From Escherichia coli (GTDB lineage Bacteria; Pseudomonadota; Gammaproteobacteria; Enterobacterales; Enterobacteriaceae): a stretch of 64,000 nt of DNA. The translations under genes and the position numbers were made by a program. The stretch lies in assembly GCF_016026235.1 (NCBI RefSeq), contig NZ_CP065613.1; one strand, written 5' to 3'. Positions 10,184 to 12,586 of the stretch are shown here, piece by piece. Position 1 is the stretch's first letter; the number at the start of each line of letters is the position of its first letter. The notes under the pieces are model-generated. The model was given only the letters and a program-made list of their open reading frames with translations, was not told where the DNA came from and did not search any database.

Positions 10184-10216
10184 TCACCTTCAATGGTGGT
10201 CAGTGCGTCCTGCTGA

Positions 10217-10252
10217 TGGCTAAATAGTACGATTTGTACTTTATCGAGTCAA
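10217..10252 (-). promoter_or_regulatory. pL-like promoter with overlapping operator-like dyad
   Basis: Reverse strand TTGACT-17 bp-TACTAT; imperfect palindrome AGTACAAATCGTACT (10226-10240) overlaps the -10, and a related copy overlaps the pR -10. Confidence 0.45.
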
Positions 10253-10330
10253 TACAAAATGTTCTAAATATAATTAGTTTCTTATAACGCTTTGTATTTA
10301 ATGGGTTTATATTTTGGAAAAAGAAAACCC

Positions 10331-10342
10331 GACACTAAGGTC
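10331..10342. repeat. IS4 target-site duplication, left copy (GACACTAAGGTC)
   Basis: Identical 12-mer at 11769..11780 directly flanking the IS4 termini. Confidence 0.85.
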
Positions 10343-11768
10343 TAATGCCGATCAGTTAAGGATCAGTTGACCGATCCAGTGGCTGTGTAAGAATCCGGAA
10401 ACGCTCACTTGTTTCCGGATTTTTTTATGCACATTGGACAGGCTCTTGATCTGGTATCCCGTTACGATTCTCTGCGTAACCCACTGACTTCTCTGGGGGA
10501 TTACCTCGACCCCGAACTCATCTCTCGTTGCCTTGCCGAATCAGGTACTGTAACGCTACGCAAGCGCCGTCTTCCCCTCGAAATGATGGTCTGGTGTATT
10601 GTTGGCATGGCGCTTGAGCGTAAAGAACCTCTTCACCAGATTGTGAATCGCCTGGACATCATGCTGCCGGGCAATCGCCCCTTCGTTGCCCCCAGTGCCG
10701 TTATTCAGGCCCGCCAGCGCCTGGGAAGTGAGGCTGTCCGCCGCGTGTTCACGAAAACAGCGCAGCTCTGGCATAACGCCACGCCGCATCCGCACTGGTG
10801 CGGCCTGACCCTGCTGGCCATCGATGGTGTGTTCTGGCGCACACCGGATACACCAGAGAACGATGCAGCCTTCCCCCGCCAGACACATGCCGGGAACCCG
10901 GCGCTCTACCCGCAGGTCAAAATGGTCTGCCAGATGGAACTGACCAGCCATCTGCTGACGGCTGCAGCCTTCGGCACGATGAAGAACAGCGAAAATGAGC
11001 TTGCTGAGCAACTTATAGAACAAACCGGCGATAACACTCTGACGTTAATGGATAAAGGTTATTACTCACTGGGACTGTTAAATGCCTGGAGCCTGGCGGG
11101 AGAACACCGCCACTGGATGATACCTCTCAGAAAGGGAGCGCAATATGAAGAGCTCAGAAAACTGGGTAAAGGCGATCATCTGGTGAAGCTGAAAACCAGC
11201 CCGCAGGCACGAAAAAAGTGGCCGGGACTGGGAAATGAAGTGACAGCCCGCCTGCTGACCGTGACGCGCAAAGGAAAAGTCTGCCATCTGCTGACGTCGA
11301 TGACGGACGCCATGCGCTTCCCCGGAGGAGAAATGGCGGATCTGTACAGTCATCGCTGGGAAATCGAACTGGGATACAGGGAGATAAAACAGACGATGCA
11401 ACTGAGCAGGCTGACGCTGAGAAGTAAAAAGCCGGAGCTTGTGGAGCAAGAGCTGTGGGGTGTCTTACTGGCTTATAATCTGGTGAGATATCAGATGATT
11501 AAAATGGCGGAACATCTGAAAGGTTACTGGCCGAATCAACTGAGTTTCTCAGAATCATGCGGAATGGTGATGAGAATGCTGATGACATTGCAGGGCGCTT
11601 CACCGGGACGTATACCGGAGCTGATGCGCGATCTTGCAAGTATGGGACAACTTGTGAAATTACCGACGAGAAGGGGAAGGGCCTTCCCGAGAGTGGTAAA
11701 GGAGAGGCCCTGGAAATACCCCACAGCCCCGAAAAAGAGCCAGTCAGTTGCTTAACTGACTGGCATTA
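10343..11768 (+). mobile_element. IS4, 1426 bp
   Basis: Terminal inverted repeats TAATGCC.../...GGCATTA, single transposase gene, 12-bp direct repeats outside. Confidence 0.9.
10427..11755 (+). CDS. IS4 transposase
   Basis: 442-aa product from [20 protein letters not shown]..., matching the recalled IS4 transposase. Confidence 0.9.
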
Positions 11769-11780
11769 GACACTAAGGTC
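11769..11780. repeat. IS4 target-site duplication, right copy (GACACTAAGGTC)
   Basis: See left copy; removing IS4 and one repeat yields a hairpin CCCGAC-ACTAAG-GTCGGG followed by a T-rich tract. Confidence 0.85.
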
Positions 11781-11815
11781 GGGTTATTGTTGTGTGCTTT
11801 AGAGTAGTGAGGCTG

Positions 11816-12475
11816 TTAACTAAATGTCTCTTCAGGCCACTGGCTGGCGATAACTTTCCCCACAACGGAACAACTCTCATTGCATGGGATCATTGGGTAT
11901 TGTGGGTTTAGTGGCTGTAGAAACACCTGACCACTATCCCTGATCAGTTTCTTGAAAGTAAATTCATCACCACCAAGTCTGGCTATGCAGAAATCGCCGG
12001 GCTCAACAGCTTGCTCAGGGTCAACCAGAATTAACATCCCGTCAGGAAAACTGGGTTTGGAACCTGTTGGTGCGGTCATGGAATTACCTTCAACTTCAAG
12101 CCAAAACGCACAATCACTGGCTTTTTTGGTTGTGCTGACCCATCTCTCCGCATCACCTTTGGTAAAGGTTCTAAGCTCAGGCGAGAACATCCCGGCCTGA
12201 ACATGAGAAAAAACAGGGTACTCATATTGTTTTTTAACGGGGGCAGATGAGTATTCGCCAACAGGTGAAAATGTACCGTCGTGGTTGAATGAGACGTTAT
12301 CAATACCAAGGTATTTAAACACCACACCAATCTCGTCAAGAGATGGATGACGAGATCCGCGCAACCAGTGACCAATTCCACCCTGCGTCATACCAAGCTC
12401 TTCAGCTAACTTCTCTTGAGTTATGCCGAGCTCTTTCATTCTGGATCTAGCCAGTTCATACCATTTCATTTTCAT
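11816..12475 (-). CDS. cI: CI repressor (HTH N-terminal domain of non-lambda specificity, lambda-type S24 peptidase C-terminal domain)
   Basis: C-terminal half ([21 protein letters not shown]...[17 protein letters not shown]) matches lambda CI; N-terminal HTH differs; start MKMKWYEL preceded by AGGA. Confidence 0.85.
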
Positions 12476-12586
12476 ATCCTTATTATTACGCTCTGTACTA
12501 AAACCATCCATGCACAAGATGTATTTTTTGTTTGCATTCCAAAAGTACATATCGTATTATTGTCTCATGGTTACTATGGAGGGCAT
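12476..12586. promoter_or_regulatory. oR region with divergent pRM/pR promoters
   Basis: pR candidate TTGCAT (12532-12537)-17 bp-TATTAT (12555-12560); operator-like AGTACATATCGTATT at 12544-12558. Confidence 0.45.

Follow-up and report, generated by a model that had tools for sequence, protein, structure and literature searches.

Which immunity does a prophage carry when one part of its repressor gene is lambda's and the other is not? The question is raised by positions 10190-12586 of a 64-kb window (the whole stretch of Escherichia coli contig NZ_CP065613.1 that was analysed), in which a sequence-only reading had proposed a hybrid immunity region: a lambda-type C-terminal domain of the repressor CI and lambda-type nut sites, combined with a non-lambda helix-turn-helix (HTH) domain, Cro and operators. 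Very probably the interval is the lysis-lysogeny switch, or immunity region, of a lambda-like prophage that resides in an Escherichia/Shigella chromosome, with a specificity of the VT2-Sakai type and not lambda's. Judged by sequence, the immunity type is that of VT2-Sakai, the Shiga toxin 1 (Stx1)-converting phage and Stx2 phage II. The proposal of a hybrid was borne out, in that a non-lambda cI N-terminal domain, right operator (oR), cro and left operator with its promoter (oL-PL) are enclosed, with sharp breakpoints, between lambda-type N/nutL and nutR/cII. The elements it described lie where it had placed them, whereas a 1,426-bp IS4 insertion sequence (IS) and its 12-bp target duplication, which lie in the same interval, had been left out of its account; IS4 alone makes up 60% of the interval. 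The immunity module and its arrangement are already known and very common, and the IS4 insertion alone is particular to this lineage.

BLAST of the window against lambda returned four blocks of identity (Table 1), and nothing aligns between them. Identity to lambda is 94-97% for N, nutL, nutR, cII and O. Across 12227-12808 and 10219-10342 BLAST detected no nucleotide similarity to lambda, and an alignment of the operators with those of lambda fails. The three breakpoints could be placed closely. The first, at 10218/9, lies a few bases from the predicted PL transcription start in a three-way alignment; the second, at 12226/7, falls exactly at cI codon 84 (Tyr), which corresponds to about lambda residue 101, the point from which the crystallised C-terminal fragments run; the third, at 12808/9, is 6 bp past the cro stop codon.

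The proteins encoded on either side of these junctions follow the same division. The cI gene (11816-12475, minus strand) encodes 219 residues with HTH_3 and Peptidase_S24 domains. The C-terminal domain is lambda-like, as had been read: residues 84-218 match the lambda CI crystal constructs with a single natural change (S to C in ASD(S/C)AFW), the PDB entries for the lambda CI C-terminal domain are matched with E values of 1e-84 to 1e-97, and in the protein alignment the last residue is S where wild-type lambda has G. Ala94-Gly95, Ser132 and Lys175 align with Ala111-Gly112, Ser149 and Lys192 of lambda CI, so that the HTH and S24 domains, the Ala-Gly site and the Ser/Lys dyad of a lambda-type CI/Cro switch repressor are all present. 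Residues 1-83, in contrast, form an HTH_3 domain with marginal similarity to that of lambda (E=0.003), and Cro is a 71-residue HTH_3 protein with no nucleotide similarity to lambda, whose own Cro has a different fold. Neither the N-terminal domain nor the operators are lambda's, and with the lambda CI N-terminal domain, lambda Cro and TATCACCGC-type operators all absent, the region does not belong to the imm-lambda group.

Cro and the CI N-terminal domain are 35% identical and have a common recognition-helix motif, G-x-TQG-x-IGHW, as would be expected of two proteins that read the same sites. The 434 and P22 repressors show marginal PDB similarity to Cro (E=0.01-0.3). A relative of Cro with a solved structure (matched by 12587-12799) is PDB 28tn_A, an 82-residue 'lambda repressor-like protein' (E=4.5e-17), which is a possible template for modelling operator recognition by Cro. 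In lambda CI the positive-control patch comprises the acidic helix-2 residues E34 and D38, and these align with E and E in the present CI. The databases (GenBank, PGAP) give a cI product of 231 residues from an ATG at 12511, which lies inside the operator OR2 and upstream of the -35 element of the maintenance promoter (PRM) annotated in AP005153, the Stx1-converting phage. The 219-residue product starting at 12475 appears more likely than the annotated one, because the 12511 ATG lies upstream of the maintenance promoter's own -35; if this placement of PRM is true, the database cI starts 12 codons too far upstream.

Table 1. Features of the immunity region and its flanks, with the blocks of identity to lambda (window coordinates unless stated otherwise)
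Feature	Position	Strand	Lambda position	Sequence or make-up	Evidence and remarks
cI N-terminal HTH_3 DNA-binding domain, codons 1-83	12227-12475	-		MKMKWYEL...; recognition helix TQGGIGHW	E=8e-11
cI C-terminal part, codons 84-219 and stop	11816-12226	-		lambda-type hinge, cleavage site, S24 oligomerisation/autocleavage domain	Peptidase_S24 E=6e-29
cro	12587-12802	+		71 residues; recognition helix TQGAIGHW	HTH_3 E=4e-12
OL1	10225-10241			TAGTACGATTTGTACTT	overlaps PL -10 and spacer; top matrix score, 20.9; zero-mismatch pattern match; kept in relatives
OL2	10250-10266			CAATACAAAATGTTCTA	3-bp overlap with PL -35; 25 bp centre-to-centre from OL1; matrix rank 3
OL3	10283-10299			TATAACGCTTTGTATTT	33 bp centre-to-centre from OL2; matrix rank 4
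OR3	12484-12500			TATTACGCTCTGTACTA	overlaps PRM -10 and spacer; zero-mismatch pattern match; matrix rank 5
OR2	12510-12526			ATGCACAAGATGTATTT	abuts PRM -35; 26 bp from OR3, 33 bp from OR1; matrix rank 7
OR1	12543-12559			AAGTACATATCGTATTA	overlaps PR spacer and -10; matrix rank 2; zero-mismatch pattern match; kept in relatives
PL	10224-10252	-		TTGACT-17-TACTAT	promoter scan; AP005153 -10/-35 signals over homologous stretch
PR	12533-12560	+		TTGCAT-17-TATTAT by direct reading	scan gives TTTGCA-18-TATTAT from 12531; AP005153 major rightward promoter, homologous bases
PRM (putative)	12482-12510	-		TGGATG-17-AATAAT-6-ATG	AP005153 maintenance promoter over homologous bases
Lambda block: N	9741-10068		35063-35387		93.9% identity
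Lambda block: nutL and PL leader	10130-10218		35497-35584		96.6% identity
Lambda block: cI codon 84 to end	11822-12226		37234-37638		93.6% identity
Lambda block: nutR, cII, O	12809 onward		38248 onward		97.4% identity
IS4	10343-11768	+		transposase 10430-11755; terminal inverted repeats begin TAATGCCGATCAGTTAAG / CTTAACTGACTGGCATTA	1,426 bp
Left half of split t_imm-like terminator	10322-10342	-		AAAACCCGAC-ACTAAG-GTCGGGTT	includes left duplication copy
Right duplication copy, right terminator half-stem, spacer to cI stop	11769-11815	-		duplication copy 11769-11780; 35-bp spacer
N antiterminator gene, lambda-type	9716-10042	-		107 residues and stop	Pfam N36 E=1.5e-26; left flank, outside the interval
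PL leader with nutL, lambda-type	10130-10218	-		boxB GCCCTGAAGAAGGGC at 10153-10167; boxA TGCTCTTAA	lambda boxA CGCTCTTAA
nutR and tR1 region up to cII, lambda-type	12809-12921	+		boxA AGCTCTTA; boxB GCCCTGAAAAAGGGC at 12828-12842

The element between oL and cI was assigned to IS4 from its transposase (Pfam Nterm_IS4 and DDE_Tnp_1, NCBIfam IS4 family transposase NF033592) and from end-to-end identity (100%) with annotated IS4 copies, and IS4 matches were also found on ~290-kb plasmids. Together with the IS load of the prophage, these plasmid matches may point to a Shigella or enteroinvasive E. coli background. A length of ~1.4 kb, terminal inverted repeats, a DDE transposase and a target duplication within the 11-13 bp range agree with this assignment. 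The duplication, GACACTAAGGTC, is present at 10331-10342 and 11769-11780. In place of the lambda order of cI, rexA, rexB and terminator, cI is here followed directly, 35 bp past its end, by a t_imm-like terminator (AAAGAAAACCCGAC-ACTAAG-GTCGGGTTATTG) homologous to the lambda terminator AAAGAAAACCCGGCGCTGAGGCCGGGTTATTC downstream of rexB; no rexA or rexB is present. IS4 has inserted into the loop of this terminator, and the duplication takes in the loop together with the uppermost 3 bp of either stem arm. The uninterrupted terminator is found as an empty site in E. coli 10035776-3 and in the phages Dewey and phi458. A second element, of the IS3 family (1,264 bp, 7950-9213, with 27-bp imperfect inverted repeats and a 3-bp duplication, ATA), which we take to resemble IS600, lies in the 3' end of a lambda-type cIII, where the open reading frame (ORF) 9211-9363 retains 50 residues of 54, with four codons lost; the element cuts the PL operon after cIII.

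These two insertions, lying within 2.5 kb of one another and one of them physically splitting the t_imm hairpin, give some grounds for regarding the locus as a dead remnant in which immunity has been inactivated and cI is not properly expressed or terminated; the IS4 junction moreover came up in draft genomes only, while the searches of complete E. coli and of species-representative genomes did not yield it. We nevertheless consider inactivation unlikely. cI, cro, N and cII are full-length with their catalytic and HTH residues intact, the six operators and three promoters are intact, and the oR interval is 100% identical to that of the viable phage phi458. IS4 breaks no coding sequence and no operator; it lies downstream of the cI stop and carries at its right end a terminator-like hairpin and T-run (11764->11739) that faces PRM transcription and could stop PRM transcripts in place of the split terminator. 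The insertion in cIII would be expected to affect the establishment of lysogeny and the PL operon, not the maintenance of immunity. An intact immunity region thus remains the preferred interpretation, and the isolated phages Dewey and phi458, in which N, oL, terminator, cI, oR and cro are arranged alike but IS4 is lacking, attest to the viability of that arrangement.

The exact IS4/terminator junction had no match in 100,044 species-representative genomes, and no complete E. coli genome searched covered the IS4-containing interval. An exact-protein lookup with CI did lead to the junction in one draft, GCA_050054195.1 (contig JBNHSK010000151.1), and to two further drafts (GCA_017137435.1 and GCA_012807895.1) that encode exactly this CI and whose contigs break at the duplication. 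In all three drafts the short CI contigs end at, or ~100 bp into, the IS4 junction, and the insertion is therefore taken to be common to a small lineage, for which it offers a marker as well as a clean, datable example of IS4 target choice. IS4 has once been found in the pheST attenuator, another terminator hairpin. The duplication is itself near-palindromic, being made of stem top and loop, and a preference of IS4 for hairpin or palindromic targets may be general.

The insertion also moves oL 1,438 bp further from oR. The distance between the centres of OL1 and OR1 rises from ~880 bp in the compact, Dewey-type form to 2,318 bp, compared with 2,407 bp in lambda and 2,287 bp in the Stx1 phage, and this near-match is regarded as a coincidence. 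Because CI keeps the lambda C-terminal domain, the mediator of octamer looping, the versions could differ in looping effects; that the expansion was a selected change, with the compact, Stx-type and IS4-expanded forms differing in loop-dependent PRM regulation and prophage stability, is an idea to which we attach very little weight. Read-through from PRM into IS4, antisense to the transposase gene, is a related and similarly remote possibility that would couple IS4 activity to lysogeny.

The operators proved more numerous than had been thought. The dyads at 10226-10240 (minus-strand reading) and 12544-12558 that had been picked out are present, correspond to OL1 and OR1, and each overlap a -10 element by 5 bp, but the view that there is only one clear copy per side has to be given up: three 17-bp sites of the form nAnTACR-N3-YGTAnTn were located on each side from the AP005153 annotation, a pattern search, a weight matrix and conservation, so that the oL dyad occurs in three copies. 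AP005153 annotates three putative operators per side, and these align base for base with the six sites in the window. OR3, OR2 and OR1 form a tripartite operator (12484-12559) between the cI start at 12475 and the cro start at 12587, with PR overlapping OR1, and OL1-OL3 form a second cluster (10225-10299) that overlaps PL upstream of N. A symmetric weight matrix built solely from the operators annotated in AP005153 ranked the six sites 1-5 and 7 among the ~64,000 positions of the window. The position ranked sixth, 7973-7989, lies inside the IS3-family element and was set aside as a chance match.

Conservation follows the sites closely. The Stx1 phage agrees with the window at 92 of 102 operator bases, as against 27 of 49 bases in the inter-operator spacers (Fisher p=2e-6), and at oL the spacers are essentially scrambled between subtypes with the three sites retained. 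OL2 is homologous to an operator annotated in AP005153 and is conserved though both flanking spacers diverge; OL3 has 16 of 17 bases as in the Stx1 phage and VT2-Sakai, while the OL2-OL3 spacer is unalignable; the first 16 of the 17 bases of OR3 are invariant in all relatives compared; and OR2 is backed by its position, by an operator annotated in AP005153 and by a conserved ACA...TGTAT core. When the dyad motif was searched for with a 15-nt pattern (at most one mismatch), 5 of 8 matches clustered in the operator DNA, in a total of ~150 bp. The 64 kb contain the core TACRNNNYGTA 3 times, against 1.8 expected, which is not significant, but all three occurrences are in the two operator regions; since the location of these matches alone is informative, the matrix and conservation were relied upon instead. 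An alternative OR2 ~25 bp from OR1 and overlapping the PR -35, which would mirror oL, was not found by matrix scan and direct reading.

It might still be argued that one operator per side is functional, or two at oL as in phage 933W, for which only two OL sites are reported (PMC4587872), and that the remaining dyads are chance matches in AT-rich DNA. OR2, OL2 and OL3 each depart from the TACR-N3-YGTA core at one position, and the score of OR2 is within the range of shuffled sequence. Chance would, however, have to account for high ranks in an independently derived matrix, for the conservation of OL2 and OL3 amid scrambled spacers, for site positions that are fixed with respect to the -35 elements of PL and PRM and the -10 of PRM, and for the agreement with the three plus three sites of AP005153 and of the Sakai phage, where OR1-3 and OL1-3 are predicted for Sakai-type Stx2a phages with reference to Fattah et al. 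2000 (PMC4587872). VT2-Sakai has also been treated elsewhere as having six operator sites (PMC9803871, PMC10742460). Fewer than three sites per side is therefore very unlikely.

Several points weigh against this account of the region and its operators. OR2 is the weakest match, with a matrix score of 11.7 that is reached ~1.9 times per shuffled window and is thus not significant by sequence alone. The operators are spaced 25/33 bp at oL and 33/26 bp at oR, compared with 20-24 bp in lambda, and for this reason lambda-like pairwise cooperativity between OR1 and OR2 is an assumption. A cI start at 12475 is a prediction, as is a PRM transcript without a leader, and the databases start cI at 12511. 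VT2-Sakai operators have been tested with lambda CI only, which bound weakly with a micromolar dissociation constant (PMC9803871, PMC10742460), and no test of the cognate VT2-Sakai-type CI on these sites was found in the literature covered, which did not extend to Fattah et al. 2000. Finally, the second IS lies inside cIII, so that the prophage may be defective overall despite an apparently intact immunity region.

Strong purifying selection could in principle have kept a domain of common ancestry lambda-like without any recombination, and the region would then be no true mosaic, but this is most improbable. The epsilon34 repressor does pair a related N-terminal domain (~54%) with a C-terminal domain roughly 80% identical to lambda's by our own count, which makes the combination of this N-terminal family and a C-terminal domain of lambda type an old one. 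Yet nucleotide identity to lambda passes from undetectable to 93.6% exactly at codon 84, over 405 bp and with synonymous positions included, and the same step is seen again where PL starts and just beyond the end of cro, a pattern that marks recombination at the borders of modules. Recombination is here understood to cover exchange either way, into lambda or into this lineage.

The regulatory geometry that we infer from the sequence, the AP005153 annotation and comparison with lambda would allow a switch of the lambda kind. Binding, regulation and immunity are given as predictions throughout; the identities, breakpoints, site positions, conservation, IS4 structure and empty sites were read directly. 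The cI transcript is predicted to be leaderless as in lambda, starting at the A of the ATG at 12475. Relative to this putative PRM start the centre of OR2 lies at about -43 and that of OR3 at about -17, the corresponding values in lambda being -42 and -19 by our own reading of lambda coordinates. OR1 and OR2 are 33 bp apart centre-to-centre as against 24 in lambda, and these 9 extra bp account for the longer distance between PR and PRM.

By homology with lambda, dimers of CI would bind the 17-bp dyads through the non-lambda HTH domain, OL1 and OL2 covering the -10 and -35 of PL and OR1 covering the -10 of PR. OR2, at about -43, would be placed for activation of the leaderless cI transcript, and occupation of OR3, over the PRM -10, would give negative autoregulation. 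The lambda-type C-terminal domain would provide dimerisation, pairwise cooperativity and probably OL-OR looping, and, stimulated by RecA, would use Ser132/Lys175 to cleave itself at Ala94-Gly95. Cro, which is of the HTH type, would bind the same sites by way of the common recognition-helix motif and flip the switch. In a switch of this kind CI and Cro would occupy the sites with opposite orders of preference and CI would activate PRM, for which this motif and the site geometry are indirect evidence.

In the flanks, the nut sites are essentially those of lambda, as had been read: both boxB sequences are identical to lambda's, and boxA (TGCTCTTAA at nutL, AGCTCTTA at nutR) departs from lambda's CGCTCTTA in the first base only. 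The nutL boxB hairpin forms in an RNA fold. The first base of boxA is T at nutL (10174-10182), A at nutR (12811-12818) and C in lambda; the nutR change coincides with the mosaic junction, and nutL of E. coli 10035776-3 keeps the lambda base. The N leader (10046-10135, minus strand) measures 61 bp from nutL to the N start, compared with 109 bp in lambda, with which it is not alignable, and it folds into a long perfect stem (AGCUUUGAGUAGCGCG...CGCGUUACUCAAAGCU; z=-5.6 for the whole leader) at the position of lambda's RNase III-processed hairpin. To the right of the immunity region follow a lambda-type cII (Pfam Phage_CII), with a CII-dependent PRE site, TTGCN6TTGC, at 12931-12944, and then the O/P genes. 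An Rfam scan of 7000-15000 returned the lambda cIII thermoregulator RNA element only (RF01804, intact at 9318-9376), with nothing in the immunity region. The window holds the whole lambda-like prophage, which adjoins yacH-acnB-yacL. The host flank at 47500-52000 (yacH, acnB, yacL) has 98.7% identity to the majority of E. coli genomes and 99.9% to strain FDAARGOS_943; the host lineage is poorly represented among complete E. coli genomes.

The module itself is widespread. The cI-oR-cro segment was found in 105 phage records at 90-99% nucleotide identity, among them the Stx1-converting phage, Stx2 phage II, 2851 and Nil2, and at 96-98% in the isolated phages Dewey, Louie, vB_EcoP-683R2 and phi458; the module as a whole is 93-97% identical to that of VT2-Sakai, the Stx1-converting phage, Stx2 phage II, 2851, Dewey and phi458. 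Of 5,426 complete E. coli genomes, 772 carry the segment that is specific to this immunity type (12227-12802). Among the matches listed for the CI N-terminal domain (50 of 190 records, sampled across the ranking), those from VT2-Sakai, the Stx1 phage, 2851, 1717, YYZ-2008 and phi458 are 95-100% identical and the next relatives, at ~54%, are from the Salmonella phages epsilon34, L and ST64T. The comparison with immunity types 21, 434, HK022 and phi80 that had been suggested was carried out on the same matches; none of these types was among them, and the type found was that of VT2-Sakai. In a classification of Stx-phage repressors the VT2-Sakai-type CI was placed with lambda CI in 'Clade I' at 61% overall identity (PMC8951638), as would be expected of two repressors with the same C-terminal domain and unrelated N-terminal ones; from the placement of VT2-Sakai, the CI described here probably belongs to the same clade.

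Cro is 100% identical to that of the Stx1-converting phage, and the CI N-terminal domain differs from its counterpart there in 3 residues, all outside the HTH helices. With the same DNA-recognition domain (95-100%) and the same operators, six in register, the prophage is predicted to be homoimmune with the VT2-Sakai/Stx1-converting-phage group. Since the recognition helices of both Cro and CI are identical, immunity to VT2-Sakai-type Stx phages is predicted for any strain with this region, which bears on the spread of Stx phages in Escherichia/Shigella. Beyond correct annotation the locus is otherwise of little importance, being one more copy of a module that many Stx phages and ~14% of complete E. 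coli genomes carry.

Set beside known systems, the region is closest in specificity to VT2-Sakai, the Stx1-converting phage (AP005153), Stx2 phage II, 2851, 1717, YYZ-2008 and Nil2, with 93.6% identity over cI-oR-cro and six operators in the same register and with the same core. In these Stx phages N is HK97-like, cII and O are HK022-like, and additional ORFs take up 1.2-1.5 kb between oL and cI, whereas the window has lambda's flanks, a cI followed directly by the terminator and IS4, and an OR1-OR2 spacing that differs by 1 bp. In arrangement it is closest to Dewey (PQ850600), phi458 (OP434518) and the E. coli 10035776-3 prophage, which are 96-100% identical over oL, cI, oR and cro (97-99% in the oL region). 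Dewey and E. coli 10035776-3 have the same compact order of lambda-type N/nutL, oL, t_imm, cI, oR and cro without rex, and phi458 differs by ~1 kb of extra DNA between oL and cI. The C2/CI repressors of epsilon34, L and ST64T resemble the present one in an N-terminal domain 54% identical and a lambda-like C-terminal domain, epsilon34 Cro is 45% identical, and the annotated operators of epsilon34, ATAC-N5-GTAT, have the same core dyad; these phages are nonetheless too divergent for homoimmunity to be expected, and are P22-like, with gene 24/N-type antitermination and P22-type nut sites. With lambda itself the region has in common its architecture, the CI C-terminal domain (1-2 residue differences), N, the nut boxB sequences, cII/PRE, t_imm and the geometry of PRM, and it differs in the CI N-terminal domain, the fold of Cro, the operators (lambda TATCACCGC... 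compared with nAnTACR-N3-YGTAnTn), their spacings and the absence of rexA/rexB. The laboratory and natural immunity hybrids of lambda (lambda imm434, lambda imm21) embody the same concept, a heterologous repressor/operator/cro cassette that works between lambda N/nutL and nutR/cII. Because lambda's own N, nutL, nutR, cII and PRE work with any immunity module, the present locus is a natural equivalent of the laboratory hybrids, although it carries another specificity module and, unlike them, keeps a lambda-type CI C-terminal domain, with the boundary of the exchange inside cI.

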